UHGV virus genome: UHGV-0130218
DNA length: 19,889 bases
DNA from: a virus
Direction: 5' to 3' (one strand)
A program made the translations under genes and the position numbers. Below the pieces are notes generated by a model, which had not been told where the DNA came from, made no database searches, and saw only the letters and a program-made list of their open reading frames with translations. This document shows, in pieces, positions 1 through 18,943 of this stretch; the first letter of the stretch is position 1, and each line of letters starts with the position of its first letter.

Positions 1-9
1 GTTGCCGAT

Positions 10-35
10 CTGAGGTCGGTTAAGTCGCTGCGGGT
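10..35. repeat. Direct repeat copy 1 (partner at 1323-1348)
   Basis: Seen in sequence: 10-35 ctgaggtcggttaagtcgctgcgggt versus 1323-1348 ttgaggttggttatgtcgctgcgggc, with a 24-nt core differing at 2 positions. On the minus strand each copy overlaps a stop codon preceded by codons for ...PAAT. Confidence 0.7.
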
Positions 36-49
36 TTGTCTGCCTGTAG

Positions 50-349
50 CTACTTCGAAGAAAGGGCAAGTTTGCGCACAGTCGTCAGGAAATTGAATGG
101 GGTTGAATCCCACAACTCAGGTGAAAAATCAAATCCATACCGGCTTTTGAACTCCTCATCCAGCCTGTCTCCGTAAAGCACAAGGAAAGAATCGACCTCT
201 TCGGCTAACTCTTTTAACATCCAGTCGGGAGCTGTTTTTTTATAGAGTTCAACAGTGCCTTCAATAGTATCCTCTCCCTCATTTATGAGGTCATGATCCT
301 GATTGAAATAACCCTGAATCAGCTGATCAAGATGATAGAAACTTTGCAT
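50..349 (-). CDS. Putative immunity protein of the adjacent toxin-like ORF
   Basis: 99-aa ORF that starts 12 nt downstream of the toxin-like ORF on the same strand. Small, acidic (D/E-rich), no catalytic motif, as is typical of immunity partners of nuclease toxins. Family not assignable by eye. Confidence 0.45.
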   Translation of the reverse strand: MQSFYHLDQLIQGYFNQDHDLINEGEDTIEGTVELYKKTAPDWMLKELAEEVDSFLVLYGDRLDEEFKSRYGFDFSPELWDSTPFNFLTTVRKLALSSK

Positions 350-361
350 AATCCACCTGTC

Positions 362-1207
362 CTATGGGGTCGGGAATGCTGTAAGGATATAGTAAGGTTT
401 TCCGTTATACTCTTGCAATTCGATAACAATCCTCACTCCACGCATGCTGATGCGCTGTGTGCTGCCTCGCGTGAATCCATACCCAACCTCCTGACCGGCA
501 GAATAATTGATGGTAAGGCGTCCACCAATTTTACCACCTCCGAGTAACGATTTGATATTTGCCCGGTTAAGATAGACCGCCCTCGAAATAACATTTTCAG
601 CAACATTTAAGTCTTTAAACGTTGAAGACATAACAAGTCGCTTATTTTTCTCGAATCGGGCAAGTAACTCACTGTCAGTTTTTCCGACATGATTTGCGAG
701 TGTATGGCCGCCGGGTTTAAGACCCGTAACTGATTCATGCTGGATCAATTTGATGCGACCAGCTTTAATTGCAGCTACACGGACGGCACCAATAGCAGCT
801 GCAAATCCAAGCGGAACGGCTATATCAACTGTCATGCCGATATTGAGGGCGGTGTCTTCATCGGCACCAAGTTCTCTTGCCGCGCTTACAGCAATTTGCC
901 AGGTGGCTGAGCGCGTATCACGACCGGTTATTAGCTGTCTGGCTGCGCTTTGAACAGCGTCAAGACTATGTGCACCAACAACCACACATCCCGCTTTCGT
1001 TAGTCCTGTTGGTTCTGGCGCGATACATAGTGCCGTGGCACCGGCCATTTCTACCGCTCCGAGTAAAACGCCAAGTCCCCCCAACAGTCGGTTACTCAGC
1101 GTTTCCGCCTCTGTAATGCTTTTATCTGAAAGCACCGCCGCCAGCTGTACCGGTGACATAACAACGACCATTCCACCTTCTTCCATAACAGTATCCCATC
1201 CCTCCAT
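362..1207 (-). CDS. Putative polymorphic-toxin-like protein (Gly/Ala-rich pre-toxin segment ending in TG plus C-terminal nuclease-like domain)
   Basis: 281-aa ORF. N-terminal part has a Gly/Ala-rich hydrophobic segment (LLGGLGVLLGAVEMAGATALCIAPEPTGL...AARQLITG) resembling pre-toxin TG domains. C-terminal ~130 aa carries GGHTLANHVGK (His-x4-His-x2-Lys), reminiscent of EndoU/RNase-type toxin domains. No secretion or delivery domain is present, and the upstream frame closes 17 codons before the ATG. Confidence 0.5.
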   Translation of the reverse strand: MEGWDTVMEEGGMVVVMSPVQLAAVLSDKSITEAETLSNRLLGGLGVLLGAVEMAGATALCIAPEPTGLTKAGCVVVGAHSLDAVQSAARQLITGRDTRSATWQIAVSAARELGADEDTALNIGMTVDIAVPLGFAAAIGAVRVAAIKAGRIKLIQHESVTGLKPGGHTLANHVGKTDSELLARFEKNKRLVMSSTFKDLNVAENVISRAVYLNRANIKSLLGGGKIGGRLTINYSAGQEVGYGFTRGSTQRISMRGVRIVIELQEYNGKPYYILTAFPTP

Positions 1208-1322
1208 ATCCTGACTCGATAATAGCCAAAACTTTCTTCGGTTGATAAGAGTAAATTACTGGCTTTTCTTATTTATTTGAACTCATCATATTCAGCTGAG
1301 ATAAAAAGACGGCTGTTGCTGG

Positions 1323-1348
1323 TTGAGGTTGGTTATGTCGCTGCGGGC
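1323..1348. repeat. Direct repeat copy 2 (partner at 10-35)
   Basis: See copy 1. This copy overlaps the stop codon of the 63-aa ORF ending ...DEPAAT. Confidence 0.7.
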
Positions 1349-1524
1349 TCGTCGCATGTCGGCAGCCAGTCGTCGTAGCTTTCTTCTTTCAGTGACGGGT
1401 TGGTCTGTATCTCCTGCTTTATGTTCCGCTTCTCATGATTCAGGCCGTACTCTTTCAGCATCATGGGCAGCCCCTGCCCGAACATTTTCAGGCTGAGCAC
1501 CTTTCTGTATCCGTTAGCCTTCAT
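1333..1524 (-). CDS. Hypothetical 63-aa protein whose 3' end is duplicated downstream of the immunity ORF
   Basis: ORF with ATG start ending ...SYDDWLPTCDEPAAT. The last ~45 nt are related with indels to the sequence just past the immunity ORF stop, which encodes LQADKPAAT-stop in frame. No recognisable domain. Confidence 0.25.
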   Translation of the reverse strand: MKANGYRKVLSLKMFGQGLPMMLKEYGLNHEKRNIKQEIQTNPSLKEESYDDWLPTCDEPAAT

Positions 1525-1675
1525 ATGCGTATTCCGATGATTCCGGTGTTTTCGATCGCGCTTTTCGCGCTTTCCTGCTGCGCATTCGCGCTCTCGAAAT
1601 GAAGGGGGAGAGCGCGCCGCAGTCCGCGGCCATCGACGAGCTGCCGATGCGCTAAGTCGTCAGGGCAGCTTCGAT

Positions 1676-1819
1676 ATGAATCAGGAGCCGGTATTGTCCG
1701 TGACGGGTATGCACCGGCCGCAGATTACTGACGTTGATACGGAGCTGTTACGCAGCCCTGCGAAGAGGATGATGCTTGCCAGAAAGCTGGCTGAAAATGG
1801 CGAGACAAAAGCGGAGGAG
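1676..1819 (+). pseudogene. Short ORF abutting ogr/delta, possibly the C-terminal remnant of a truncated upstream late gene (sid-like position)
   Basis: 47-codon frame (MNQEPVLSVTGMHRPQITDVDTELLRSPAKRMMLARKLAENGETKAEE) ending 5 nt before the ogr/delta ATG. The frame is closed upstream at 1655-1657. The sid assignment is by position only. Confidence 0.2.
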
Positions 1820-1824
1820 TAAGC

Positions 1825-2043
1825 ATGTTTCACTGGCCGTTCTGCAAAACCAGCGCGCATTCCCGCACCAGTCGGTATCTGTCCGATAACGTCAAACAGC
1901 GCTATCACCAGTGCATGAACATAGAGTGCTCGGCCACGTTCCGCACGCTTGAATCCATCGACGGGGTTATTCGTTCACCGGCAACAGAGCCGGTCATCCC
2001 TGCACCCGCACCGGCGGCCACCGTTAACCGTGCCGGTGCGTAA
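1825..2043 (+). CDS. ogr: Ogr/Delta-family zinc-finger late-gene transcription activator (P2/P4 type)
   Basis: 72 aa. MFHWPFCKTSAHSRTSRYLSDNVKQRYHQCMNIECSATF matches the Ogr/Delta signature (P2 Ogr as I recall it: MFHCPLC...RTSRY...RYHQCQN.NCSATF). RBS ggagga lies 8 nt upstream. The first Cys ligand position is W (TGG). Confidence 0.85.
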   Translation: MFHWPFCKTSAHSRTSRYLSDNVKQRYHQCMNIECSATFRTLESIDGVIRSPATEPVIPAPAPAATVNRAGA

Positions 2044-2409
2044 GCACGGCCAGTTATCAGGAGAAACATACGTGACCACACTGACGCTACATAAATTATT
2101 CGGCGCAGGATAATGACATTTTAACGGTCATCGGATTCAGGCCTGACGCGGCTTCGCGCGATGATAGTCGTGAAAAATTCACACCCGCACAGAACCTGAA
2201 TTACACACGCCGCCGTGCAGAACTGGCCGTGCAGTAGTCCGCTTAAAAATCCCCGAAAATCCCGCCATTTTTACTTATAAGAGCCATGCATGCATAGGTG
2301 CATGGTTTTGCATGCGTTTTACCGACACTGAATTCCCCGCCAGCGCCAGCACTGGCGCGCTCTGAGGCCGGTCATGCGCCTGCATTAAAAGCGCCCCCTT
2401 AAGCGGGCA

Positions 2410-2428
2410 GGCGTGGCGGGGAGAGCAT
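2410..2428 (+). other. cos-like 19-mer (P2/P4 cohesive-end-like)
   Basis: GGCGTGGCGGGGAGAGCAT matches 16 of 19 positions of the P2/P4 cohesive-end sequence as I recall it (GGCGAGGCGGGGAAAGCAC). It sits where P4 has cos, between the delta/psu late genes and the int-proximal region. Confidence 0.4.
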
Positions 2429-2505
2429 TGCGCGCCAAAAGGCTTGAAAGGAATTCTTCACGGAGGCAATATTAAGATAATATAAACTTAAGTCAGGACG
2501 ATTGT

Positions 2506-2754
2506 ATGTATGATCAGTCTTTCAATCCGCGCACACTCTCACGATGTTTCAAACCTGAGGATTTCCATAAAAATAGAGCATTAAGTCTAGACAGTGTTCG
2601 AGAAAAGACTATTAACTCGGCTATCGAAAGATATAAGGATGGGTTCTTGGGTTATAATTTACGCTCATCCGTTTTAAGAGGGAAAACAGTATATTGGGCC
2701 GATGAGTTAGCTGATGTATTGGTCTTGAGGAAAATTAAAAAAAAATTTATCTAA
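2506..2754 (+). CDS. Reverse transcriptase, N-terminal (fingers) segment; frame ends inside an A9 tract
   Basis: ATG with RBS agga 8 nt upstream. 82 codons encoding ...GYNLRSSVLRGKTVYWADELADVLVLRKIKKK, consistent with RT motifs 1/2. Stops at 2752-2754, just after the A9 run at 2737-2745. Confidence 0.6.
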   Translation: MYDQSFNPRTLSRCFKPEDFHKNRALSLDSVREKTINSAIERYKDGFLGYNLRSSVLRGKTVYWADELADVLVLRKIKKKFI

Positions 2755-2845
2755 GCTATATCAATTAAGATTACCTTCTCGAACAAAGATTGTTGATACA
2801 TTAAAGGTTTTTTTATCAGAGTGTTCACAGTATAAAATATACAGA

Positions 2846-3769
2846 TTGGATATATTTTCATTTTATGAATCTTTCGATAAAAACTATATATTTAATAAAA
2901 TAGATGGATTGGAGCGGTTAGAGCTTAAAACAAAGCAGGTTCTAAAGGAATTTCTTTATTCATTCTATCTGAATGGTGGGCAAGGAATACCAAGAGGATT
3001 GTCAATCAGTGCATACTTGGCAGAGTTACTAATGTATGATTTCGATAATCAAGTGAAAGATAACCACTCTGTTTTTTATTATGCTAGGTATGTAGATGAT
3101 ATAGTTATTGTCACTAGTGGTTACGAAGATAGTGATGCTTTTATTGAGAATGTAAAATCAAACCTTCCAAATGGATTGCGTTTTAATGAAGGGAAGAAAT
3201 ATTATATTAGCGATTTAATTCCAAAATCTTCCAAAAAAACAAACCGTGCACCCTCCAAAAAATTGTTATCCTTTGAATATTTAGGGTACGATTTTAGCGT
3301 GGGAGATAAAATTGAAGAGTGCAATATAAGAGGATTCTATAGGGTAATTGAAATTGATCTTGCACATGCAAAGGCTAATAAAGTAAAAAGTAGAGTGATT
3401 TATTCGATTGTTGATTTTAATAAAACCAATGATTTTGAGTTGCTATGTGAAAGACTAAAATTCCTGTCCACAAACTTTAGTGTTTTAGATTCAGATAGAG
3501 TATTAAAACGGTTGTCGGGCATTCATTTTAATTATCCTCTTATTGATGCTAAATCTTCTAAGCGCCTTGCTGAACTTGATGTGTTTTTAAGAAAGGCTGT
3601 ATTATCATCTAGTGGTAAGGTTTTCTTTGATTTTCATGCGAACTTAAACCAATGCAAAAAATATCGATTACTTAAGATTAGTTTTGTTAGAGGCCATGAG
3701 AAACGTCATTTTTTTCATTATTCAGCTTCAAAAATGATGAAAATTCAAAGGTGTTGGAAATATGTCTAA
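2846..3769 (+). CDS. Reverse transcriptase, palm/thumb segment (the frame is open from 2729, so it is likely continuous with 2506-2754 after a +1 shift)
   Basis: RT motif A YRLDIFSFYESFDKNYIF, motif B QGIPRGLSISAYLAELLMYDFD, motif C YYARYVDDIVIV, motif D/E LRFNEGKKYYIS. No ATG or GTG precedes these motifs in this frame; the ORF track uses TTG at 2846. AT-rich. Confidence 0.8.
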   Translation: MDIFSFYESFDKNYIFNKIDGLERLELKTKQVLKEFLYSFYLNGGQGIPRGLSISAYLAELLMYDFDNQVKDNHSVFYYARYVDDIVIVTSGYEDSDAFIENVKSNLPNGLRFNEGKKYYISDLIPKSSKKTNRAPSKKLLSFEYLGYDFSVGDKIEECNIRGFYRVIEIDLAHAKANKVKSRVIYSIVDFNKTNDFELLCERLKFLSTNFSVLDSDRVLKRLSGIHFNYPLIDAKSSKRLAELDVFLRKAVLSSSGKVFFDFHANLNQCKKYRLLKISFVRGHEKRHFFHYSASKMMKIQRCWKYV

Positions 3770-5714
3770 AAAAAAGGAAGTAAGAGTTAATAAAAAAGAT
3801 TTTAATAGGGTTTTAGTTACTGAAACCATACCCTATGAAACGCCTATAATAGTGTCCAATGATGGTTTTTATAACAATGTAGTTAAATATACAACGGCCA
3901 ATGATACTGCTAAGGTATTGATTCAAAGAATAATTCTAGGGGAAAAGAAGAAAGGTAGGTATACGATTCCCTATGTTTTTAAAATTAATAAAAATGAGAC
4001 GGAGTTTCGACGTTTAGCCTTTCCACACCCCATATCTCAGATTGAAATGCGGGATTTTTATCTCCATTTTAATCAAATGATGATCAATTTTTGTTCCCGT
4101 AGTGATTTTTCTATTCGGCGACCGGTGAAGGTTGCAAGTACATATTATTATAAGAACTTATTGGAAGACAAGAATTTATATAAGAGAGGGCCTGTTGATA
4201 CCGACAAAAATGAACTATTAACTCGGCATGCTTCTTCATATTTTGGCTATCACGGATATGATCGCCTGTATAAGTTCTTTATGTCTAATGAGTTTATTGA
4301 CCTTGAGCGTAAATATAATACGCTATATACATTAGATGTTTCAAAATGTTTCGACAGTATCTATACTCATTCAATTTCTTGGGCTGCAAAAACCAAGACT
4401 TTCATTAAAGGGATGTTAGCTAATAAATCATTAAACTTTGGTGATGCTTTTGATAAATTAATGCAACGTTGCAACTTTAACGAAACCCATGGTGTAATTA
4501 TCGGTCCAGAAATTAGTCGAATATTCGCTGAGGTTATATTTCAAAAAATAGATTTAAATGTTCAGTTTAAATTAAATAATATCGAGCCATCGATACGTAA
4601 GGGTATCGATTATGATATTCGCCGTTATGTTGATGATGTTTTTATTTTTGCTAAAAATGAAACTAATGCCGAAATTATATATAAGATTTACACTGATAAA
4701 CTGAATGAATATAACATGCATATAAATTTGGGTAAAGTAACAAAAAACACTCGACCTTTTATCACAGCAAAAACGCAAATTATACATCACGTCAATCAAA
4801 GAATGAATTTATTTATTGAATCTTTTCTTGGTTATGATGATGAAATGAAATTAATCGCAAAGCCAATATATAACAATAGGAAGTTAGCTAACAAATTTAT
4901 AGATGAGGTGAAAATAATATGTGCTGAAAATAATGCGGGATATGGTGAGGTTGCTTCTTATATTGTGTCGGCGATTTTTGAAAGAATTAAAAGATTAACT
5001 TCTTCAGTTAATCAAGTCGAAGATAAAGATATATACAATGCAATGTATGTTTTGCTCCATATTTCATTGTTCTTTTTCAGAGTTGCTCCGTCTGTTAGTT
5101 CATCATATAAATTGGCTTCAATACTTATCGTGGCTCTCAGATATTTTAAGGCTAAAGTACCATCATACAGTGAGCTTATAGCATCATATGTTTATTTTGA
5201 AATTGAAGACTTTCTTAAATCTGCTAATACTAGCAAAGTAGCCATAGATAATCTAATTAGTCTTGAGGCATATAATATTATGTATGTTATAGGTGAGCTA
5301 GATCAAGAACGATATTTATCAAAACAGTTGATTGAGAACATTTTTAGTGAAGTTGATTCTTATTTTGATATAGTGTCCTGTCTATATATCGTAAAGGATA
5401 AGAAAGTTTATAATACACTTAAAAATAAAATTATTGATATTATTAACTCCAAGTTAATGTCAAGTGATAGTATTTTGGATTATAGTGAAAAGGCAATGCT
5501 CTTTTTGGATGTTATGTCTTGCCCTTATATTGATTTAAAATGGAAAAAAATATGGTTGAAATCAACTTTAAAAGAATTGCAAGAAGCTACTCCTAACAAT
5601 GAAAAAATAGATAGTTTTATCAGTTATTCTGTAGCGAATCCTTGGTTTGTGGACTGGAGTAATGTCGATCTTTTGAATTTCTTAGAAAAAAAACAATTGA
5701 AAAAAGCCTATTGA
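3762..5714 (+). CDS. Reverse transcriptase with long alpha-helical C-terminal extension (UG/Abi-type, defence-associated RT-like)
   Basis: 650 aa. Motif A YTLDVSKCFDSIYTHSI, motif B HGVIIGPEISRIFAEVIF, motif C RRYVDDVFIFAKN, followed by ~300 aa of predicted helical sequence. Its ATG overlaps the upstream RT stop by 8 nt, indicating translational coupling. AT-rich. Confidence 0.85.
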   Translation: MSKKKEVRVNKKDFNRVLVTETIPYETPIIVSNDGFYNNVVKYTTANDTAKVLIQRIILGEKKKGRYTIPYVFKINKNETEFRRLAFPHPISQIEMRDFYLHFNQMMINFCSRSDFSIRRPVKVASTYYYKNLLEDKNLYKRGPVDTDKNELLTRHASSYFGYHGYDRLYKFFMSNEFIDLERKYNTLYTLDVSKCFDSIYTHSISWAAKTKTFIKGMLANKSLNFGDAFDKLMQRCNFNETHGVIIGPEISRIFAEVIFQKIDLNVQFKLNNIEPSIRKGIDYDIRRYVDDVFIFAKNETNAEIIYKIYTDKLNEYNMHINLGKVTKNTRPFITAKTQIIHHVNQRMNLFIESFLGYDDEMKLIAKPIYNNRKLANKFIDEVKIICAENNAGYGEVASYIVSAIFERIKRLTSSVNQVEDKDIYNAMYVLLHISLFFFRVAPSVSSSYKLASILIVALRYFKAKVPSYSELIASYVYFEIEDFLKSANTSKVAIDNLISLEAYNIMYVIGELDQERYLSKQLIENIFSEVDSYFDIVSCLYIVKDKKVYNTLKNKIIDIINSKLMSSDSILDYSEKAMLFLDVMSCPYIDLKWKKIWLKSTLKELQEATPNNEKIDSFISYSVANPWFVDWSNVDLLNFLEKKQLKKAY

Positions 5715-5880
5715 ATTGCTAATTTGTTGTTGAAGCAACCAATATGCCCTACACGATTTTTCGATATACTAGGGCTGATTACGGTAGGTAAGTTGCATGT
5801 AACCTGGCCTACCTTATGACGCTCAAGAGCAGAAATGCACACACTAAGGGATGAGGTTGCTTCAACCCCTTTTATTTTCT
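5715..5880 (+). ncRNA. Candidate structured non-coding RNA downstream of the RT operon
   Basis: 5729-5740 GTTGAAGCAACC and 5855-5866 GGTTGCTTCAAC are perfect reverse complements (12 bp), enclosing ~115 nt with internal stems such as 5784-5789 GGTAGG / 5808-5813 CCTACC. A T-rich tail follows. No ORF. Confidence 0.35.
5848..5880 (+). terminator. Putative intrinsic terminator for the RT operon
   Basis: Stem GGTTG-CTT-CAACC at 5855-5867 followed by CCTTTTATTTTCT. The int stop codon (5862-5864 on the minus strand) lies in the loop. Confidence 0.4.
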
Positions 5881-7058
5881 ACAAAATTCCCCCACCACAG
5901 CATCAGCTCTACTCTTTGTTGCAAATAGACAGAGCGGTTGTATGCTCTTCGTACCTCATTCTTATCAGAATGAGCTAGTGCTGCTTCAATGACGTCTGGA
6001 TTAAATCCTTCTTCATTAAGCGTCGTGCTAGCTATCGAGCGTAAGCCATGAGCAACTAGCTTCCCATTCCAGCCAACTCTTTTTAGTGCAGCATTAGCCG
6101 TCTGGCTATTCATAGCTTTCTTAGGGTCATTTCTACTTGGAAAAACATGATCACGGTGCTTACTGATGGGTGCCATGATCTCAAGAATATAAAGCGCCTG
6201 AGGAGATAGAGGAATTAAATGTTCACGCTTCGCTTTCATCCTTTCGGCGGGGATTGTCCAGAGTTTTGAGTCGAGATCGATCTCTTCCCACCTGGTACCG
6301 GAGGCTTCAGAAGGGCGTACAAGGGTTAGGAGTTGCCACTCAATTAGACAGCGAGTAGGAACAGACAGATTTGACATAACCAAAGAACGCATCAGACTTG
6401 GTAATTCTTCTGGTCTAAGCGTAGGCATATTTTGCTTTTTAGGCCTCTCAAAAGCCATTCCAACTCCTGAGGTTGGGTTTGCGTCAATCAAGCCGGTATT
6501 TACCGCGTAAATCATAATCTCATTAATACGCTGTACCAGACGACGAACAGTCTCCAGAGCACCACGCGCTTTGATTGGCTCTAATGCTTCAACAATTGTT
6601 CTGGCCTTAATCTCCTGAACAGGTATCGTGCCTATTGCAGGGAAAACGTCCTTGTCTAAAGATCGCCAAATATCTTTTGCATAGTCTTCGGTGACGCTTT
6701 TGCTCTTCATTTTGAACCAGTTGGTGGCCACAGTTGAGAAAATGCTATCCAGCTCTATCTGACGCTTTTCTGATGCATGCTCTTGTTGCTGTTGTGGATC
6801 CATATCTAGCGCGAGCATGGTTAAGTGCTGGTCGCGTATCTGACGAGCTGCTGCGAGTGTAAAGGCAGGGTATGAGCCGAGACTCAAATTTGTGCGGCTG
6901 CTGCTTCCCGGTCGTTGATAACGGAAGCGCCAGAGTTTTTTGCCGGAGGTTTTTACGAGTAAGAACAGGCCATCACCATCATGCAGGGTGAAGTCTTTTT
7001 CGCGGGGTTTTGCTTTGAGGATTTCGTTGTTAGTGAGGGGGCGTGTAATGCGCGCCAT
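5862..7058 (-). CDS. int: P4-type tyrosine integrase
   Basis: 398 aa. N-terminus LTNNEILKAKPREKDFTLHDGDGLFLLVKTSGKKLWRFRYQRPG is typical of P4-family integrase arm-binding domains. The C-terminal catalytic region has HGLRS...LAHSDKNEVRRAYNRSVYL (R, H-x-x-R, Y). RBS aggga upstream. It is adjacent to a tmRNA 3' fragment, as with CP4-57 intA. Confidence 0.9.
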   Translation of the reverse strand: MARITRPLTNNEILKAKPREKDFTLHDGDGLFLLVKTSGKKLWRFRYQRPGSSSRTNLSLGSYPAFTLAAARQIRDQHLTMLALDMDPQQQQEHASEKRQIELDSIFSTVATNWFKMKSKSVTEDYAKDIWRSLDKDVFPAIGTIPVQEIKARTIVEALEPIKARGALETVRRLVQRINEIMIYAVNTGLIDANPTSGVGMAFERPKKQNMPTLRPEELPSLMRSLVMSNLSVPTRCLIEWQLLTLVRPSEASGTRWEEIDLDSKLWTIPAERMKAKREHLIPLSPQALYILEIMAPISKHRDHVFPSRNDPKKAMNSQTANAALKRVGWNGKLVAHGLRSIASTTLNEEGFNPDVIEAALAHSDKNEVRRAYNRSVYLQQRVELMLWWGNFVENKRG

Positions 7059-7079
7059 GTCTGGATCCCTTCCATAATT

Positions 7080-7127
7080 GGTACACGTTTAATGGACCAC
7101 AGTATAGCGTGTACCTAAACGTGTACC
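7080..7127. promoter_or_regulatory. Cluster of three 8-mer repeats (CGTGTACC) upstream of int; candidate integrase/regulator binding sites
   Basis: GGTACACG at 7080-7087 (inverted) and CGTGTACC at 7108-7115 and 7120-7127, between the int start and the att core. Confidence 0.3.
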
Positions 7128-7171
7128 TATTTTCTCTGGATTTAACCGGATGTTCTCGGACAACGCCAGAC

Positions 7172-7210
7172 ACAAAAAAGCCCGCAGGGCTTGCGCCGTG
7201 CGGGCTTTCA
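7172..7210 (-). terminator. Intrinsic terminator downstream of the tmRNA 3' fragment (minus strand)
   Basis: Minus-strand reading: GCCCGCA-(12-nt loop)-TGCGGGC followed by TTTTTTGTG (plus coordinates 7205-7172). Confidence 0.5.
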
Positions 7211-7262
7211 GGACTTCATCGGATGACTCTGGTAATCACCGATGGAACATTTTGGTGGAGCT

Positions 7263-7300
7263 GGCGGGAGTTGAACCCGCATCCGTAACCAGCTATCTCA
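7263..7300 (-). other. ssrA: tmRNA (ssrA) 3'-terminal fragment serving as att core (not a complete gene)
   Basis: Reverse complement of 7263-7290 is GCGGGTTCAACTCCCGCCAGCTCCACCA, which matches the T-arm, acceptor 3' strand and CCA end of enterobacterial tmRNA. Sequence beyond 7300 is AT-rich coding DNA with no tag-peptide region. Confidence 0.7.
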
Positions 7301-7311
7301 TTGAAAAATAA

Positions 7312-8172
7312 TCAAATAAATTTGTTTTTCCATGTCTCGTATCTTTTACGTATCCTTTGAAGTAGTAATGCCGTCCAGCTAAGGCCGTGAGAGAATGTTA
7401 GATTAAAAGTTGCTTCCACTGTATCTCCACGTATTGAGAATCTATTTATCCGATATTCAGTAGAAAAAAACTCTTTTTTTGTTGTTCCAGAGATTTCTTC
7501 ATATTCAATTAATAAAACAGGCCCATCTATTTGAGTTAACATATTTTCATGGAGGCTGATTTTATCCAAGAGGTAGTTAGATAATAGTGTCGGTATTAAT
7601 GTGGGGATGTGAAGATTTACCTCTTCTTTGTTAACGCTCCAAGGGAGAATATAAACAACATCAGAATATTGTTCTTCATGAGAATACCATTTGGATTGAC
7701 CAAAACCTAATAATGAAATGTAAGTGTGACCTTGTTTGTCTAATTGATAACAGTATTCATTAGCCATCATGGCTGCTTTGTAACCTTTGGTGTCAAAGGT
7801 ATGTTCATCGTCTAGTTTTTTTATTTTATTTAACAAAAAATGTTTTTCGTAATTGAATATCCATTGGTATTTGAATTTCAACGCTGGGCCTAGACCAACA
7901 TTTAATATTGGCAGGGTGGGATTGTTGTTTTTTGATATAGCATCAAAAACACCTTTGTTTACTATTTTTGTTTTATCAATTTTTATTTTTACATCTTTAG
8001 TGATTATCTGTACTTTGTTTGATAACTTTCTTTGGATAACAGTTTGCCTTATAGCTAAATAAGCAGCAATTGCTGATAAAGCACTTGCTGTCAAACCACC
8101 ATATCCGAGCCATGCGGGGTCTGCCATATCGAAGTATTCCTGCCTTATAACAAGGCAGGAATTATTTCTCAA
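7312..8172 (-). CDS. Hypothetical membrane-anchored protein; AT-rich moron between the lambdoid int and the att core
   Basis: 286-codon ORF with a TTG start; a more likely ATG start at 8127 gives MADPAWLGYGGLTASALSAIAAYLAI, a predicted N-terminal transmembrane helix. The ~240-aa soluble domain has no motif I recognise. Strongly AT-rich compared with the neighbouring int. Confidence 0.6.
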   Translation of the reverse strand: MRNNSCLVIRQEYFDMADPAWLGYGGLTASALSAIAAYLAIRQTVIQRKLSNKVQIITKDVKIKIDKTKIVNKGVFDAISKNNNPTLPILNVGLGPALKFKYQWIFNYEKHFLLNKIKKLDDEHTFDTKGYKAAMMANEYCYQLDKQGHTYISLLGFGQSKWYSHEEQYSDVVYILPWSVNKEEVNLHIPTLIPTLLSNYLLDKISLHENMLTQIDGPVLLIEYEEISGTTKKEFFSTEYRINRFSIRGDTVEATFNLTFSHGLSWTALLLQRIRKRYETWKNKFI

Positions 8173-9344
8173 TTCTTCACATTGTTCAAGGATGTGATCG
8201 ATGAGTTGTTATCATAATCTTTCAAATAGCGTCCGTAATGACGAAAGAGCATCTCAGGTCCTTTGTGGCCCATCTGCGCAGCCAGCCAAAATAAGTTTAC
8301 ACCGCAGCTTATCATACGTGTGGCGAATGTATGCCTTGTCTGATAAGGATTACGGTACCTGATACCGGCTTTCCGGAGCGTAGGAACCCAGGCTTTTTTC
8401 CTAATGGCGTCCGCGCTGGCCCATGGCTTGTTTGTCTTCGGATCTTCAAAGACACAACCATTCTTCATGAAGCTAAAGGGCTTTTGTTCGTTTAGAGCAA
8501 TCATCGCTTCCTCGGTTAACTCAACCTTGCGTGTTCCTGCCTTCGTTTTCGTACCTTTCGTCACGCCAGAGACGCTGGCGCTCTGTACATGAGCCGTCTT
8601 CTCAACGAAGTCAATGTCCCTCCAGCGTAGTGCGCAAAGTTCCGAACTGCGTAGACCTGTCTGAAGCGCAAATCTGAATAAGTTCTCCCATTGCTTATTA
8701 CCCGCTGATTTTAACAGCGCGCTTACCTCTGCTGGAGATAGTGGATCAACAATATAAGTACTTTCCTCGTCACTTTTTTTGCTTTGATATCGTGAAGCTG
8801 TTACCTGTGACACTGGATTAATTTGTAAAACACCATCAGTTACAGCTTCATCAAGTGAGGAACGAAGAAACGACAACTGGTTACGTATCGTCTTCAATGT
8901 TGTTTTCTGATTCTGAATCCATGTTTTTAATGCTGCTGGCGTTAACTCACTGGCCGGGAAAATGTGAAGTTCAGACAGTGCGCTACGGCATTTTTTATAC
9001 CCGCCAATGGTGGAGGGGGAAAGATTCCTCGTTTCGCAAATCTTCAGGTACTCATCAAGATACATTTTCACTGTTTTCCCGGTCGCAGCATTACCGAAAA
9101 TTTTTAACCTCACCGAACGAGGGAAATATTCAGCATAGATAAATGTTCCACGCTCGATTTTGTTGTGGATTTCGCCGAGCATACGCTCGGCATATTTAAG
9201 GTTTTTGTTGTTCACTTCTAGATTTGAAAGGGGTTCTCTGCATTTCACCCCCTTGTATGTGAACGTAATATTGATGGTTTCACCACTGCTGTGCTTCCTG
9301 ATGGTTACACCACGTGGGAGTTTAGGCGATTCTTTCGTGCCCAT
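8169..9344 (-). CDS. int: Phage tyrosine integrase (lambdoid type)
   Basis: 391 aa. C-terminal catalytic region RNPYQTRHTFATRMISCGVNLFWLAAQMGHKGPEMLFRHYGRYL (R...H-x-x-R...Y). Its start overlaps the xis-like ORF. Confidence 0.9.
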   Translation of the reverse strand: MGTKESPKLPRGVTIRKHSSGETINITFTYKGVKCREPLSNLEVNNKNLKYAERMLGEIHNKIERGTFIYAEYFPRSVRLKIFGNAATGKTVKMYLDEYLKICETRNLSPSTIGGYKKCRSALSELHIFPASELTPAALKTWIQNQKTTLKTIRNQLSFLRSSLDEAVTDGVLQINPVSQVTASRYQSKKSDEESTYIVDPLSPAEVSALLKSAGNKQWENLFRFALQTGLRSSELCALRWRDIDFVEKTAHVQSASVSGVTKGTKTKAGTRKVELTEEAMIALNEQKPFSFMKNGCVFEDPKTNKPWASADAIRKKAWVPTLRKAGIRYRNPYQTRHTFATRMISCGVNLFWLAAQMGHKGPEMLFRHYGRYLKDYDNNSSITSLNNVKN

Positions 9345-9523
9345 TTTGCAACCTCACTAAGATCTATCCATCTCTCCTTAACGCCTTCAACCTTAAGCAC
9401 CTGCACCCCTTCACGCCAAACGCCGCGCTGTACACGCTTATTGATCGCATCTGGGGTTTCGCCAGTCTCTTTGCAATAAGTTGAGATGGGAACACAATCG
9501 AGGCTCAGCATATACTTCTCCAT
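9305..9523 (-). CDS. xis: Excisionase-like small DNA-binding protein
   Basis: 72 aa, basic. Overlaps the int start by 40 nt, the classic xis-int arrangement. Confidence 0.6.
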   Translation of the reverse strand: MEKYMLSLDCVPISTYCKETGETPDAINKRVQRGVWREGVQVLKVEGVKERWIDLSEVAKWARKNRLNSHVV

Positions 9524-9545
9524 TAACTCGGCTGCACCCGAGTAA

Positions 9546-10118
9546 TTAAAACTTGTCGCTGTTGGTAGGGATCAGTTTCTGCCAAATTGCTGACAAATAT
9601 TTTGCCTGGTGTCGCGCATCAGCTAGGGCATTGTGCACATCGCCAATAAAAGGCATGTCACGCTTCGGATCGAAACCGACACTGCGACCAAGCGTAACAA
9701 TAGTGCGCACATCGTGATCGTTCCAAAAGCCCCAAGGGCATATGCGGCCGGCGCGTTCGTAAGCTCCACGCAGAATCACATTGTCAAAGGTGGCACCGTT
9801 ACCCCAGACCTTCATGTATTTTGGATTATCTGCGTGCCGGTGAATGAAATGGCTCAGTTCCGACAGTGCATCAGTGATAGGCAGCGCATCATCAACACAA
9901 ATAGCTGAGCGCGCTTCCGAGCTTTGTTTGAGCCACCAAAGAATAGTATCTCCGTCCGGTACCGCACCCTGATCCATTGCGCTTTCAAGCGAGATGGCCG
10001 TATAGAATTCTTGACCAAGTTCACCTGTATGAGGGTTAAAAAAGACGGCACCAATTGACACGATCGGCGCGTTTGGCTTTTTTCCCATCGATTCGAGGTC
10101 AATCATTAAGTCGTTCAA
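9546..10118 (-). CDS. DnaQ-like (DEDDh) 3'-5' exonuclease
   Basis: 190 aa. N-terminal Exo I motif MIDLESMG, and a C-terminal His/Asp motif HNALADARHQ. Confidence 0.65.
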   Translation of the reverse strand: MNDLMIDLESMGKKPNAPIVSIGAVFFNPHTGELGQEFYTAISLESAMDQGAVPDGDTILWWLKQSSEARSAICVDDALPITDALSELSHFIHRHADNPKYMKVWGNGATFDNVILRGAYERAGRICPWGFWNDHDVRTIVTLGRSVGFDPKRDMPFIGDVHNALADARHQAKYLSAIWQKLIPTNSDKF

Positions 10119-10402
10119 TTGCTTTCTCCATTGTTCTTGGCTTCTGATTCACTGTGGGGGCTGTAGCGCGAGTCGGCGTTGTCGCTAACGTGGCAATAAT
10201 GAGCCCCGTCAGGACGAGTACAAATTGTCCCGCACCTATCACATGCCAATATTGCTTCCAGCTCCGCGATCCGCTCCTCTGCTTTTGACAACTGCTCGAG
10301 AAGTTCTTCTGCTAACGTCACACGCATCACGACTTTCTGACAGTCGTGGCGCTTGGCTCTGGCGATTGTGCCGCGCAGACTCGCATAATTGTTGGGGGTC
10401 AT
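10115..10402 (-). CDS. Hypothetical phage early protein (Cys-containing, coiled-coil)
   Basis: 95-aa ORF overlapping its downstream neighbour by 4 nt, indicating an operon. No assignable domain. Confidence 0.5.
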   Translation of the reverse strand: MTPNNYASLRGTIARAKRHDCQKVVMRVTLAEELLEQLSKAEERIAELEAILACDRCGTICTRPDGAHYCHVSDNADSRYSPHSESEAKNNGESN

Positions 10403-10596
10403 TGGACGGACTCCTGACGAAGATGGTTAATTTCGGCGTCAAGGCTCATTCGCTGGTCCATCGATTCCGTCAAGGCGGCAAATGTAACGTCCAGGCGAGT
10501 GGCTACCTCACGCATCAGAGAAGCTTCTGCTGGTGACAGTTTCTCCGCCGCAGCATGGGCTGCGGCTACCAGTTCTTTTATCTTCATGCGAGGCAT
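10399..10596 (-). CDS. Hypothetical small phage early protein
   Basis: 65-aa ORF in the same operon, overlapping both neighbours. Helical, charged. Confidence 0.45.
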   Translation of the reverse strand: MPRMKIKELVAAAHAAAEKLSPAEASLMREVATRLDVTFAALTESMDQRMSLDAEINHLRQESVQ

Positions 10597-11123
10597 GCGC
10601 GTGATTCCGTAAGCTCATTGAAACGGTTAATGAACAAGCCATATGCTTGGCCTGGACGAAGAGGGACGATCTGGATAATGTCGCTGGCCGGTATACCTTC
10701 AAGACAAGGCCAGAGTGAGCCGTCGTCGATATCCAGATCGCGGCGTTCAGTGGCAAGCATCACCAGATCGGCGTATTTCACTACCGCTGACATATCAGGG
10801 GTGATGCTGAATTTGGCCCGGATCAGCTGTTCTACCCGCTCTTCAATGCGACGATAATCTGGAAGCAATGCCTTTAGGGGGGCAGGTATGTCTTGGCAAT
10901 AGGCTTCAGCTGCATCATGCATCAGGGCTTCAAAGGCAAACTCTGGCGGCACAATTTGGCTGCACAGTACCGAGTGCTGGGCCACGCTGTAAAATTCCGG
11001 CAGATGACCACTGAAGCGGCAGATGTGGGAAAGTGCGGTCGCAATATCCTCGAGCTCTACATCGTCAGCGGTTGAATTAAGGTAATTGAATTTCTTACCT
11101 GAAAGTGTCTGGATATAACTCAT
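10584..11123 (-). CDS. HD-domain phosphohydrolase (YfdR-like prophage protein)
   Basis: 179 aa. HD signature ...SVAQHSVLCS...ALMHDAAEAY. Size and neighbourhood match the CPS-53 yfdP-yfdQ-yfdR arrangement. Confidence 0.75.
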   Translation of the reverse strand: MSYIQTLSGKKFNYLNSTADDVELEDIATALSHICRFSGHLPEFYSVAQHSVLCSQIVPPEFAFEALMHDAAEAYCQDIPAPLKALLPDYRRIEERVEQLIRAKFSITPDMSAVVKYADLVMLATERRDLDIDDGSLWPCLEGIPASDIIQIVPLRPGQAYGLFINRFNELTESRACLA

Positions 11124-11257
11124 CGTCTTTTCTTCTCCATATTTGGCAGCTGCACCTGCGCTAGTTTTGGTTGTACGAATCCCTCGCCTTTGGCGATTAA
11201 TAAAGGGAATTGCGCTTCAATAAATCCCCGCGGCGCCGGGGATTTAATGCAGAGAAA

Positions 11258-12088
11258 TTACGCTTTAAAGTTACCGATAAAGGTTTCTACTGGCTCGCCG
11301 TCGAATTTGCTGATTAGCAGATCTCGGAATTCATTGGCGATCGCTTCTTCCTGCGCTTCCAGCTGAACAATACGCAGAACAAAGCGTGGTTCGTCACCTG
11401 TGAGTAGACTATTGCGAAGGCTGAATGCTCGCTCACCAAGACCTTCATACGGCACGCATTTGAACTCGAACGCTACCGGCATTACATCTTTGCTGCTGGC
11501 CTCAACGCTCTGCATTAGTGATTTTTTCCCGCTGAAATCACCGTCTTCATGATCCTGCTGAGTCGCCTGCTGGATAGTGATGCGACGAACAGCCTGAGCA
11601 GCCTGTGAAATCTGCATGGTATTTCCTTCAGCATCAAAGGCCAGCAGGTAATCACTCCAGTCTTCCAGCCATTCGGCGATCTGCTTTTGCTTCAGTCGGT
11701 CACCGTTAATCGCCAGCAGCGCGCGGAAAGGTGCAGTCTGTTTCAGGGTGATTGCAGCAACGTTATCAGCATGGCCTGGGTTTTCCAGCGTGCCGATATT
11801 GAACACGGAGCGTGCTGTCATATTGTCCGCATCGATAAAGCAGCGAGCCGGCTCTTCGACACTGGCATACCCTTTAGAATAACGGGCGAAATCATTGATG
11901 CTGGTCGTGGTCATGGCGCCACGGAAGCGGAAGCGCTCCAGTGAAAAATTTTCCAGGCTCGCTACCTTTGTATTTTCCGGCAAAATAGCTGTTGGACAGG
12001 CGAGTCCGTTAATATCATTCAGGTGATAGCCGGAGAGAACCAGGTCTTTAACCTGTTTGATGGCGCTGCTGTCTAGTTGCTGAGACAT
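11258..12088 (-). CDS. YfdQ-like prophage protein (DUF2303-type)
   Basis: 276 aa. Called from size and position between the YfdP-like and YfdR-like genes. No catalytic motif recognised. Confidence 0.6.
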   Translation of the reverse strand: MSQQLDSSAIKQVKDLVLSGYHLNDINGLACPTAILPENTKVASLENFSLERFRFRGAMTTTSINDFARYSKGYASVEEPARCFIDADNMTARSVFNIGTLENPGHADNVAAITLKQTAPFRALLAINGDRLKQKQIAEWLEDWSDYLLAFDAEGNTMQISQAAQAVRRITIQQATQQDHEDGDFSGKKSLMQSVEASSKDVMPVAFEFKCVPYEGLGERAFSLRNSLLTGDEPRFVLRIVQLEAQEEAIANEFRDLLISKFDGEPVETFIGNFKA

Positions 12089-12144
12089 AAAAATTCCTTA
12101 TCTGCTAATGATCGAAGTGGTTGCAGTGAATTGGTTGAGGCGGT

Positions 12145-12516
12145 TCACTGAGCCGCTTTAAGCTTTCCGTCAACGCCGCCGTTGATGCCGAACAACTGTC
12201 CCTGATCTTCTTGGAGGATGGTCAGCTTGCCGCCTTTGTTAACCCACATTGGTGTTTCGGTGGTGTCTTCTTCGGAGGCTTTACCGCGCGGGGTAGGGGT
12301 TACGTAGTTCAGCTTGTGCTTGATCTTGACGCGCTTCTCTTCGACGGAGTTACCCATACGCTCAATATCAAAGGTGAGGACTACTTTGCCTTTGGTACCG
12401 TTGTTCAGAACGCCAAGCGCGGTAGTGTTTAAAGCTGCCGCGATCTTGTTCATGAACACGCCGGCATCCAGTTCGCCCAGGAAATCGGGCACTACGGTCA
12501 TGCGGTCATTACTCAT
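12145..12516 (-). CDS. YfdP-like prophage protein
   Basis: 123 aa, first sizeable ORF of the leftward early operon. Assignment is by synteny and size only. Confidence 0.5.
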   Translation of the reverse strand: MSNDRMTVVPDFLGELDAGVFMNKIAAALNTTALGVLNNGTKGKVVLTFDIERMGNSVEEKRVKIKHKLNYVTPTPRGKASEEDTTETPMWVNKGGKLTILQEDQGQLFGINGGVDGKLKAAQ

Positions 12517-13267
12517 GGTTTAACCCTCTGTGAGGCGGCTGCCACCGCCAGTGGAACTTCTCCATACACAACAGAAAAGGGCACCTGCGTAGCAGTGAAG
12601 ATTGCAGCCTCCATTTCTGCGCCCGGGTGGATTGGGGAATGAGCCCGTCGCCCGGTGATGCCCTTGTCTCTTGTGTAAAAAAGGTGCCCACCGATGTGAT
12701 GGGCAAAGACTACTCACAGCAATGATTTTGTTGTGGCGGTGGTGCCTCCACCTGCCGGACCGGCCAGAACCGGCGACGCTACACCTCAAGAAACGTATTC
12801 ATTTCAAATGTTGAAATAAAAACTTGTTGGCCTCGTCACGTGCGCAGAGCCGCATTACCACAACTGGAAGCGCACTCCGCCAGGTAACAAACCGATCCCC
12901 ATCAGTAAGAAGAGGAGTGCGCTTTCATGTTGTGTTGTGTTGGTCGGTGCTGATCTCCGGCTTTCGGGATGGTTTTGCCATTGCCCCGCGCGGGTTAATA
13001 GTCCGCTGCACATCAGCCTGTGCATTCACCACAACGGTGAGGGCACTGTTTATCTGCTTTACCGATTCGCGTCTCACGCAGTCCGATAATCAGCAATGCT
13101 CTCGCCTGTTGTGCCCTTAAAAAGCTGGCTGTCACCCTCAAGGGGAAAGTGAGCAGCCAGAACAGGGATCACTTCTTATTGCTTTGGCCTGCTTTTAACC
13201 ACATCAGGCGCGGTGGTTCTGCTTAACAACCGCGAAAGTAATAGTGGGTACCAATCGCGTGATTTAA

Positions 13268-13319
13268 ATGTACCTTTAGTTACTTTTTCGGTCAAGCGAG
13301 GAATGTACTTTTTGTTACC
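13268..13319. promoter_or_regulatory. OL-like operator region (two copies of the ATGTACYTTTWGTTAC motif)
   Basis: 13268-13283 atgtacctttagttac and 13303-13318 atgtactttttgttac, immediately 3' of the repressor gene. The same motif recurs at 14078-14093 in the cI-cro intergenic region. Confidence 0.45.
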
Positions 13320-13371
13320 ATGAGGGATAAAAAAAATGCCAGATGAGCATCCGGCATTAGAAATGAATAAC

Positions 13372-14031
13372 TTAAATATTCTGGGTTATCTGAACAACTT
13401 TACCGACAATCCGGCAATTTCCATCTATCGGTATAGGTTTGAAGGCAGGATTAAGCGGCATCAGATACGCGAAAGGGCTATCCCAGACGAGTTTTTTCAC
13501 TGTTGCTTCAGCAGAGCCATCAAGTATCGCCACGACTATTTTCCCGTAAAGGTCATCCAGTTGGCCATAGTGTGGTTCAACTATTACGATCGACCCTTCG
13601 GGTATGGATGGTAGACCATGTGGGTTAGTCATCGATTCCCCACGAACAACCAGGCCGAATACTTCATCAGAAACGTTTGCAGTGGTTTGCGTCCATGAAA
13701 TCACATCAGAAAGCCTTGAGCATGCGTAAGTATCAGTCCACGTCCCTGCCTGGACAGCAGAGATAATTGGAACTGCCTTAGGGGGCTTGAGAAAGGGGAT
13801 CACTTTGGTGTCATCCTGCGCTTCATCTCCTTTCCCGTAGAGAATCCATTCAGGCGTGGTTTGCAACGCCATCGCCAGCTGATGGAGGTTCTCACCATCA
13901 GGCTTCGTGTTACCGCTCTCCCATTTAGTAACGGACACGCGGCTAACACCTAGGCGTTTAGCTAGGGTCTGCTGCGTTATATCGAGCTGGACTCGACGGG
14001 ATCTTATTCGGTCTTTCATCTCTGTTTTCAT
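13372..14031 (-). CDS. cI: CI-type phage repressor (HTH plus S24 LexA-like peptidase domain)
   Basis: 219 aa. N-terminal HTH QQTLAKRLGVSRVSVTKWESG. C-terminal GESM (Ser nucleophile) and ATVKKL (Lys) motifs. Divergent from the cro-like gene. Confidence 0.85.
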   Translation of the reverse strand: MKTEMKDRIRSRRVQLDITQQTLAKRLGVSRVSVTKWESGNTKPDGENLHQLAMALQTTPEWILYGKGDEAQDDTKVIPFLKPPKAVPIISAVQAGTWTDTYACSRLSDVISWTQTTANVSDEVFGLVVRGESMTNPHGLPSIPEGSIVIVEPHYGQLDDLYGKIVVAILDGSAEATVKKLVWDSPFAYLMPLNPAFKPIPIDGNCRIVGKVVQITQNI

Positions 14032-14094
14032 GTAACCAATGTTACATTGATTCCTTGTAACTGTTGTTTGCTATTTGATGTACCTTTTGTTACC
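14032..14094. promoter_or_regulatory. OR-like operator region between cI and cro
   Basis: Inverted half-sites TGTAAC-N4-GTTACA at 14031-14046, gtaactgttg at 14055-14064, and atgtaccttttgttac at 14078-14093. RBS aggagg at 14113-14118 precedes cro. Confidence 0.45.
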
Positions 14095-14123
14095 TTTAAG
14101 GCGTGAGTTAACTAGGAGGAGCC

Positions 14124-14312
14124 ATGCGTAAATCACAAGTTATTGAGCACTTTGGCGGAGTATCAAAAACCGCCAGTGTTCTTGGGATCTCCCATCCGGC
14201 TGTTTGCCGATGGGGAGAGGTTATTCCTCAGAAGCAAGCGTTCGTTATCGAACGAATTACTGAAGGCAAGCTTAAGTACGACGCCAGCCTTTATCAGAAG
14301 CCTACAGATTAG
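14124..14312 (+). CDS. cro: Cro-type small HTH repressor
   Basis: 62 aa. VIEHFGGVSKTASVLGISHPAVCRWGEVIPQKQAFVIERITEGKLKY resembles P22-type Cro as I recall it. Divergent from cI, with a strong RBS. Confidence 0.8.
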   Translation: MRKSQVIEHFGGVSKTASVLGISHPAVCRWGEVIPQKQAFVIERITEGKLKYDASLYQKPTD

Positions 14313-14349
14313 GCATCTGGGAAGAAACCACAGATATAAGGGGTTAGCC

Positions 14350-14898
14350 GTGGGTATAGAACCTGAATGGAAAGTAGATAAGCAGCCAGCCTGGCTGGTG
14401 GCCGCAATCAAAAAAACGATAACCGAGCTTCCTGGCGGGTATTCCGAAGCAGCTGAGTGGTTGGGTGTGACCGAGAACGCGCTGTTTAACCGGCTGCGTA
14501 CCGATGGTGATCAGATCTTCCCGCTCGGTTGGGCGATGGTGCTTCAGCGTGCTGGTGGTTCAAACCACATAGCGAACGCTATTGCACGTCACTCGAACGG
14601 TGTGTTTGTGCCATTGGCTGATGTTGAAAAGATTGAGAACGGCGATATCAACCAGCGTCTCATGGAGTCAGTTGAGTGGATCGGCAGGCATTCGCAATAC
14701 GTTCGTAAAGCTACCGCTGACGGCGTTATTGATGCTCAGGAACGCGCCCAGATCGAAGAGAACAGCTATCAGGTGATGGCTAAGTGGCAGGAACATTTGA
14801 CGCTGCTTTTCCGTGTGTTTTGCGCGCCGGAAAAGAGTGACGCCCGCGAGTGTGCAGCTCCGGGCGTCGTGGCAGACAAATCTTGTATGGAGAAGTAA
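14350..14898 (+). CDS. CII-like / YdaT-like regulatory protein (start probably GTG at 14350, not the longer 14143 frame)
   Basis: The long ORF-track frame from 14143 would overlap cro. GTG at 14350 is preceded by aagggg 8 nt upstream. Position after cro and size (~183 aa) fit CII-like regulators of lambdoid prophages. Family call is tentative. Confidence 0.5.
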   Translation: MGIEPEWKVDKQPAWLVAAIKKTITELPGGYSEAAEWLGVTENALFNRLRTDGDQIFPLGWAMVLQRAGGSNHIANAIARHSNGVFVPLADVEKIENGDINQRLMESVEWIGRHSQYVRKATADGVIDAQERAQIEENSYQVMAKWQEHLTLLFRVFCAPEKSDARECAAPGVVADKSCMEK

Positions 14899-15070
14899 TC
14901 CGCATGACCAGTTTAACGGCTTTTAACCGTTTACCGCAACTCAGGATGATCCCGGTACCGGGCGCTCCGTTGTTTCGGTATGAACGCAGAATAGCAAACC
15001 GCTGGGTGCCATGTAACCACAGTCGGGCGGTCGCAATTGTGGGGGTTTACTACAGGAAGGCGAAACGCTT

Positions 15071-18929: not shown

Positions 18930-18943
18930 TATGGAGAAATAGC

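Follow-up and report, generated by a model that had tools for sequence, protein, structure and literature searches.

The 462-bp region studied here (positions 2044-2505 of the window, i.e., of the whole analyzed stretch of 19,889 nucleotides from the virus genome UHGV-0130218) is very probably the psu-to-cargo junction of a P4-like satellite. It comprises a psu pseudogene, a complete cos site, and the 5′ leader of a DRT3 defense cassette, and the cos sequence is intact while the island that carries it appears to be an immobilized remnant. The biology of such a locus is already described, and the locus is of a known, ordinary kind: both the location of cos beside the P4 defense hotspot (PMC9122126) and the retention of defenses by defective satellites (PMC13586616) have been published. 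The parts of the region are as follows.

2072-2237, plus strand: psu pseudogene with a 398-bp out-of-frame internal deletion relative to the intact satellite of Escherichia coli GDSC2227PM (locus L002)
2244-2273, no strand assigned: satellite-specific block, AAAATCCC twice, located between TAAAAAT and ATTTTTA (repeats D2 and I6)
2284-2320, no strand assigned: cluster of TGCAT-rich palindromes in the left arm of cos, CCATGCATGCAT-AGGTGCATGG-TTTTGCATGCG, common to satellites and helpers
2343-2358, no strand assigned: GCGCCAG-CA-CTGGCGC, a GC-rich inverted repeat (I9) in the left arm of cos, conserved in satellites and helpers
2381-2435, plus strand: 55-bp cos core, made up of a 29-bp left flank, the 19-nt cohesive-end sequence, and a 7-bp right flank, TGCGCGC
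2410-2428, plus strand: 19-nt cohesive-end (nicking) sequence GGCGTGGCGGGGAGAGCAT, identical to P2/P4 at 16 of 19 positions and to phage 186 at 18 of 19
2436-2505, plus strand: AT-rich 5′ leader of the DRT3 cassette with a sigma-70-like putative promoter and an AGGA ribosome-binding site

Homology of the region and the psu pseudogene

A search of phage records paired window positions 2091-2408 with the final 319 bp of P4. Upon alignment to the circularized P4 junction, window 2091-2438 corresponded to P4 11305-11624 followed by 1-29 (76% identity, E = 3e-66), a span that runs from the final 156 nt of psu through the right-end flank and the cohesive end of 19 nt to 10 bases further on. The same part of the window is 96% identical to the intact P4-like satellite of E. 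coli GDSC2227PM, which has the gene order alpha ... sid-delta-psu-cos-NB-ARC cargo-int-tRNA-Leu. The order in the island studied here is psu remnant, cos, DRT3, int, and ssrA.

In the initial annotation, the region was described as one ORF-free leader of about 460 bp in front of the reverse transcriptase (RT) genes. While no complete ORF of at least 40 amino acids indeed exists within 2114-2505, only the segment 2436-2505 can be assigned to the RT (DRT3) cassette. Moreover, psu had been regarded as absent, but a deletion pseudogene was found instead, in which the 5′ codons and the last 48 codons remain. The 5′ piece consists of a GTG start and eight codons at 2072-2095, and the 3′ piece of the last 48 codons and a TAG stop at 2091-2237 (stop at 2235-2237), with the deletion junction falling within 2091-2095. 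The deletion is defined by two window segments that match separated segments of L002 around its intact psu: window 1564-2095 matches L002 9001-9542 (92%), whereas window 2091-2438 matches L002 9936-10285 (96%). The psu gene of L002 is an intact 564-bp CDS (9519-10082), of which 398 bp are missing from the window. Consistent with this assignment, the frame translation of the 3′ piece (INYSAQDNDILTVIGFRPD...) matches approximately residues 140-190 of P4 Psu, and P4 11305-11460 aligns to the same piece (P4 psu is CDS 10888-11460). We also considered that the psu fragments could form a hidden small ORF and rejected this candidate, as the 5′ part encodes 13 amino acids followed by a stop and a start codon is missing from the 3′ part. 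Among species-representative genomes, an exact-match scan for the deletion junction gave 0 matches. The annotation of the region should accordingly read "psu pseudogene, cos site, and DRT3 5′ leader" and not "ORF-free leader".

The cohesive-end sequence and the cos core

The cohesive end of P2 and P4, as read from the P4 and P2 records, is GGCGAGGCGGGGAAAGCAC, from which GGCGTGGCGGGGAGAGCAT differs by three mismatches. The number of chance matches of this quality expected in the window was 0.00 (200 shuffles). These data bear out the initial recognition of a cos-like 19-mer with 16 of 19 positions identical to the P2/P4 cohesive end at 2410-2428, and both the type of the sequence and its position within the satellite agree; a 19-mer of the P2/P4-family form GGCGNGGCGGGGANAGCAY is present at exactly these coordinates. 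Because the cos sequences of P2, 186 (GGCGTGGCGGGGAAAGCAT), and Enterobacter phage ENT4 (GGCGAGGCGGGGATAGCAC) differ from each other at positions 5, 14, and 19, these three positions are variable among viable phages, and it is exactly there that the 19-mer of the window departs from P2/P4.

To delimit the distribution of this allele, IMG/VR was scanned by exact match for GGCGNGGCGGGGAGAGCAT, and 120 loci were listed (the true number being at least 120). Among these 120 listed matches, the exact window 19-mer occurred in at least 73 P4-like and at least 18 P2-like loci. In 13 of 13 P2-like loci checked, the 19-mer is located between gpA and gpQ, which is the cos position of P2 and 186. The P2-like contigs that carry it are mostly 29-33 kb long, and the record of phage SEN1 stops exactly at the position equivalent to window 2409.

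The concept of a 55-bp cos core comes from Ziermann & Calendar 1990, as cited in PMC5694545. In the window, the left flank of this core contains an imperfect palindrome, GCCCCCTTAAGCGGGC, which abuts the nick site. The core is identical to those of P4, P2, 186, and ENT4 at 46, 48, 49, and 50 of 55 positions, respectively. As the cores of these four phages and satellites share 46-52 of 55 positions with one another, the window lies within the natural range. Judged by sequence comparison, the cos is not degenerate but an allele of a natural lineage of P2/186-like phages and satellites, and its three mismatches to P2/P4 represent lineage variation and not decay.

Conservation of the flanking elements

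According to the alignments, a complete P2/P4-family cos region spans about 2244-2435. Its conservation was assessed across 85 non-redundant P4-like satellites and 17 P2-like helpers. This set was selected by the 19-mer with G at position 14 (G14) and is biased toward one lineage; the 19-mer is conserved by construction in a set selected in this manner, and only the conservation of the flanks is independent. Between 2239 and 2435, 99 columns are ≥95% conserved among the satellites, and the window carries the consensus base at every one of them; it deviates at four of the 141 columns that are ≥80% conserved, which is the satellite median.

The elements of the flank differ in their distribution between satellites and helpers. 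The block AAAAATCCCCGAAAATCCCGCCATTTTTAC (2244-2273), located just 3′ of the psu stop, has most of its columns conserved at ≥80-95% in the 85 satellites but is not conserved in the 17 P2-like loci, and P2-like phage records match the window from position 2282 on. The cluster of GCATGC/ATGCAT palindromes that had been noticed at 2284-2316 comprises the inverted repeats I7 and I8 and the direct repeat D3. Within this cluster, GTGCATG and TTGCAT are invariant across P4, P2, and 186, and GCG follows next in P4 and 186. The palindrome cluster (2284-2320) is probably a part of the terminase recognition region. The GC-rich inverted repeat is also present, although at 2343-2358 and thus two bases to the left of its initial, approximate placement at 2345-2360, and it has a counterpart in 186 (CGCCAG-AG-CTGGCG) and in P4 (GCGCC..GGCGC). 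Hence, the flanking cos-recognition elements, whose lack of alignment had been named as a refutation of the cos assignment, could be aligned with those of P4, P2, and 186, which leaves the assignment unrefuted on this count.

In the P2/P4 system, the terminase of the helper recognizes cos and introduces nicks that are staggered by 19 nt. By analogy, a helper terminase would bind the cos region described here and make staggered nicks 19 nt apart; indirect support for such cleavage comes from phage records of relatives, whose ends coincide with the equivalent of window 2409. Every extended conserved element lies toward psu, whereas conservation on the cargo side of the cohesive end is limited to 7 bp. 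With this asymmetric arrangement, the cargo should be exchangeable directly beside the cohesive-end sequence, and cargo exchange adjoining this sequence has been described by Rousset et al. 2022 (PMC9122126).

The leader and the DRT3 cassette

Past position 2435, the family-wide conservation collapses. Likewise, in approximately 1,777 of the 5,426 complete genomes of E. coli, similarity to the query ends at window 2435-2438. The abrupt switch to AT-rich DNA pointed out in the initial annotation was evident from the GC content, which drops from 0.61-0.64 (2300-2449) to 0.38 (2450-2549) and to approximately 0.3 within the RT genes. In the DRT3-carrying satellite of E. coli GF3-3, the corresponding leader shows >90% identity. 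Based on these comparisons, we assign the 70-bp leader to the cargo, with its beginning exactly at the hotspot boundary.

The suggestion that the AT-rich end may hold the promoter of the RT operon gained support from a promoter scan, which found a promoter-like site there (TTGAAA at 2444-2449, an 18-nt spacer, and AATATT at 2468-2473). This site matches the consensus at 9 of 12 positions and is supported by one independent homologous cassette, that of GF3-3, in which both hexamers are invariant. An AGGA ribosome-binding site precedes the drt3a ATG at 2506. The leader would thereby provide the DRT3 cassette with its own putative promoter and a ribosome-binding site.

The cargo was identified as DRT3 by PADLOC (Drt3a (UG3), E = 3e-119; Drt3b (UG8), E = 1.7e-223). 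In the window, an additional A in the homopolymer run at 2737-2745 splits drt3a into two ORFs (2506-2754 and 2846-3769). This A9 run is present here and in CP181762.1 (L132), and an A8 run with an intact 420-aa Drt3a exists in L081, L130, L131, and L133-L137; the A9 run could be a sequencing error or a genuine slippage that inactivates DRT3. A search for Drt3a relatives in IMG/VR returned the same contig alone.

[quoted passage not shown] A candidate for this RNA was found at the corresponding position.

5729-5866, downstream of drt3b: candidate DRT3 ncRNA, 96% identical to E. coli GF3-3

The candidate folds stably (z = −3.3), and its ACACAC template motif (5840-5845) is unpaired in the predicted fold. 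Its conservation relative to GF3-3 exceeds that of the coding DNA, and at its 3′ end it overlaps with the int stop (5862).

Since DRT3 requires an ncRNA (PMC13174585) and the region contains several inverted repeats, the ORF-free stretch itself might be regarded as a structured RNA leader or as the ncRNA partner of the RT system. We consider this extremely improbable. In the literature the ncRNA is located downstream of drt3b, where the candidate with the ACACAC motif lies in the window; the segment 2239-2505 does not fold better than shuffled sequence (z = −0.36); and 2091-2435 is conserved with satellites of unrelated cargo and with P2-like phages. Rfam searches yielded nothing at gathering thresholds across the whole window and nothing at E ≤ 1 within 1950-2600. 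Having no Rfam match and folding like shuffled sequence, the ORF-free stretch does not appear to be an RNA element of the RT system.

Lost and damaged satellite genes

Upstream of psu, the island retains fragments of two further core genes and a full-length late-gene activator with a substitution.

1303-1526, minus strand: 3′ remnant of alpha (P4-like primase), comprising the last ~194 nt and 32 nt downstream
1564-1822, plus strand: sid pseudogene, 3′ third, interrupted by an internal stop and by deletions of 1 bp and 9 bp
1825-2043, plus strand: ogr/delta-type late-gene activator of 72 aa (Pfam Ogr_Delta, E = 8.6e-18)

The alpha remnant is 90% identical to L002 4254-4479, where alpha is a minus-strand CDS (4286-6619), and a 63-aa Pox_D5 fragment is annotated at the position of this remnant in relatives. 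One deletion of ~4.5 kb has brought what is left of alpha next to the final third of sid, near 1564. The deleted segment is the homologue of L002 4480-9000 and is absent from the window. Lost with these 4.5 kb were the remainder of alpha, DUF5375, the Icd-like/epsilon region, an HTH regulator, the ori/promoter intergenic region, and two thirds of sid, and the same single deletion took away the late promoter too. In line with this loss, no epsilon or alpA/regulatory genes were found in the nine related assemblies. The sid remnant aligns to L002 9001-9269 (sid-like CDS 8526-9269), and its translation matches the C-terminus of Sid.

In the delta-type gene, codon 4 (1834-1836) encodes Trp in place of the first of four zinc-ligand Cys residues, resulting in MFHWPFC compared with MFHCPLC in P2 Ogr and MFHCPFC in L002. 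This replacement is probably inactivating, as it is common to nine of nine related loci examined, and we presume a loss of function from what is known of the Ogr zinc finger. The core set of a functional P4-like satellite consists of int, alpA, epsilon, alpha, sid, delta, and psu (PMC8628076). Measured against a functional P4-like core, the island lacks an intact alpha with ori/crr, intact sid and psu, epsilon, alpA, and a detectable second attachment site.

On the minus strand, window 50-349 and 362-1207 encode a CdiI_2 immunity protein of 99 aa and an orphan CdiA-CT protein of 281 aa with a toxin domain of the RNase-A type. Both lie between the alpha remnant and the host flank, and the window contains no upstream cdiA body.

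Attachment site, host, and related loci

Related loci allowed us to recognize ssrA as the attachment site of the island, the integrase gene of which is preserved.

5862-7058: int, intact, 398 aa

One copy of the ssrA 3′ core is located beside int (7253-7288). A second copy, which would mark attR, was not found on the alpha side in the 1.9 kb searched by blastn-short and with a 24-mer allowing three substitutions, a search that a short or diverged core could escape; the best repeat was 9 bp long. A tRNA scan detected no tRNA genes in the window.

The protein encoded in the host flank is 100% identical to that of Enterobacter hormaechei B56. The exact Drt3b protein was indexed in 459 blocks of the assembly collection, from which eight loci were retrieved. 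All eight are organized alike, with a DeoR/PfkB gene on one side and int-ssrA-smpB on the other, and are 99.8-99.99% identical to window 1-7288. The 462-bp region and the Cys-to-Trp replacement in delta (C4W) are identical in nine loci, i.e., in these eight and in the IMG/VR locus L081. According to these comparisons, the island is fixed at the ssrA site of an E. hormaechei lineage. As a remnant it is young, with all relatives being ≥99.75% identical. A suitable name for the island would be [quoted passage not shown].

The copy of the ssrA 3′ end (7253-7288) is followed by a second integrase gene (8169-9344, minus strand) and a prophage (7312-19889) that shares ~90% identity with lambdoid prophages of E. 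coli, so that ssrA has tandem occupants. In other E. hormaechei strains, the elements at this spot differ, a 186-like prophage (L134) being one of them. The species-representative strain E. hormaechei B56 (L138) is without the island. Its positions 8675-8786, compared with 11392-11506 of the related locus L130, show ~110 bp of homology to the int-ssrA intergenic arm and 15 nt of ssrA beside the same host flank, and this leftover suggests that the site was formerly or differently occupied.

Fate of the cos site

The initial annotation had opposed two outcomes, namely a functional cos in an element that can still be packaged and a degenerate cos in a fixed remnant. Neither describes the locus, where the cos is intact in sequence yet the island is a fixed remnant. 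Of the earlier interpretation as a whole, the identity of cos, its flanks, and the promoter-like site were retained, whereas the absence of psu, the mobility dichotomy, and the single leader had to be given up. In the island, an intact cos signal apparently has no route to a packageable substrate, because attR was undetected, a replicon and helper-activating genes are lacking, and the element is only ~7.4 kb long. Most likely, the cos is a recently stranded, currently unused passenger beside the retained DRT3. Its intactness is not evidence of selection, since the remnant is young and the time needed for decay may have been lacking.

Three other readings of the cos were weighed against that of a stranded passenger. 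If the genes around cos, which are clearly decayed, were taken as a guide, the site could be a degenerate, non-functional relic whose three mismatches are decay like that of sid, psu, and delta, and the identity of just 16 of 19 positions to the textbook P2/P4 sequence would fit. This is very unlikely, given that the differing positions are those variable among viable P2, 186, and ENT4, that the identical 19-mer occupies the cos position in at least 13 P2-like contigs and recurs in at least 73 satellites, and that there is zero deviation across the 99 highly conserved flank and core columns. Conversely, the island might still be mobilizable, with the terminase of a P2/186-like helper packaging the island or adjacent chromosome and spreading DRT3. 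Besides the intact cos sequence, this possibility draws on an intact int, which at 398 aa has the same length as in E. coli GF3-3, on the packaging by P2 of plasmids that carry the P4 cos alone (PMC9942202), and on the 186-like prophage that some strains (L134) harbor as a tandem neighbor at ssrA, and PMC13586616 left open whether defective elements still swap defenses. We nevertheless consider mobilization unlikely. With attR undetected, no Int-mediated circle would form; with alpha, ori, crr, and epsilon gone, neither amplification nor helper induction is expected; and a monomer of ~7.4 kb without sid would be unfit for a head of P4 size (about 11.6 kb) or P2 size (about 33 kb). In addition, P2 terminase prefers circular monomer substrates, and the near-identical island at the same chromosomal site in nine other assemblies fits vertical inheritance. 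This estimate includes packaging after recombination with a resident intact satellite or tandem prophage as well as cos-initiated lateral packaging.

A third reading would have the intact cos kept for a role, be it the lateral packaging of DRT3, a terminase decoy or chromosome-cutting trigger that acts with DRT3, or a homology anchor for cassette swaps. If so, the terminase of an incoming P2/186-like helper would start packaging at the chromosome and transfer the adjacent DRT3, a decoy or cutting trigger would cooperate with DRT3 against P2-like phages, and an anchor would let the remnant keep exchanging defense cassettes with live satellites. We assign such a retained role a very small chance and favor the stranded, unused passenger. 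The locus then illustrates that a packaging signal can outlast the genes around it, being short and the decay being recent, and that a satellite may lose all mobility functions while its defense cargo is kept, a known idea that is documented here at the level of single bases. Searches for P4 hotspots that are anchored on psu miss islands of this kind, for which the 55-bp cos core would be the better anchor.

Comparison with known satellites and phages

As in P4 (NC_001609, ends 11624/1), the cos of the island is located between psu and the variable hotspot/int, and the two elements are colinear from the 3′ end of psu to the 19-mer plus 10 bp. The 55-bp core and the TGCAT palindromes are shared with P4, P2, and 186, and the GC inverted repeat with 186 and P4. 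In contrast to P4, P2, and 186, the window has the cos allele T5, G14, T19, which belongs to a separate lineage of P2-like phages and satellites, and the element can apparently no longer replicate, regulate a helper, or excise.

The island also resembles the P4 hotspot described in PMC9122126, in that the cargo lies between cos and int, the switch from conserved to variable sequence occurs a few bp past the cohesive-end sequence, and the cargo is a reverse-transcriptase defense system, here specifically DRT3. An island like this one would have been missed in that study, because an intact Psu protein served there to locate the elements. Near-identical defense genes are kept by defective P4-like elements, and primase is the core gene that is most often pseudogenized (PMC13586616). 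Like the 'UGRs' of that study (PMC13586616, 2026), the island has mobility and core genes including primase pseudogenized or deleted, and the intact satellite of E. coli GF3-3 has a near-identical counterpart of its adjacent defense system. Beyond what was described for 'UGRs', the present locus offers a base-level anatomy, in which an intact cos is accompanied by the loss of sid, psu, alpha, and, apparently, attR, and the remnant is fixed at ssrA in an E. hormaechei lineage.

The satellite of E. coli GF3-3 (NZ_CP053259.1, 1132150-1142789) is intact, with the order alpha...sid-delta-psu-cos-drt3a-drt3b-int-ssrA, and looks like the undeleted form of the island. Both have the ssrA/smpB integration site, a 398-aa integrase, and the same cos 19-mer (19/19), and they carry the same DRT3 cassette with the similarity of leader (>90%) and ncRNA region (96%) noted above. 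Unlike the island, the GF3-3 satellite possesses intact alpha, regulators, sid, and psu as well as a delta of a different family, and its cos left arm is about 80% identical to that of the window.
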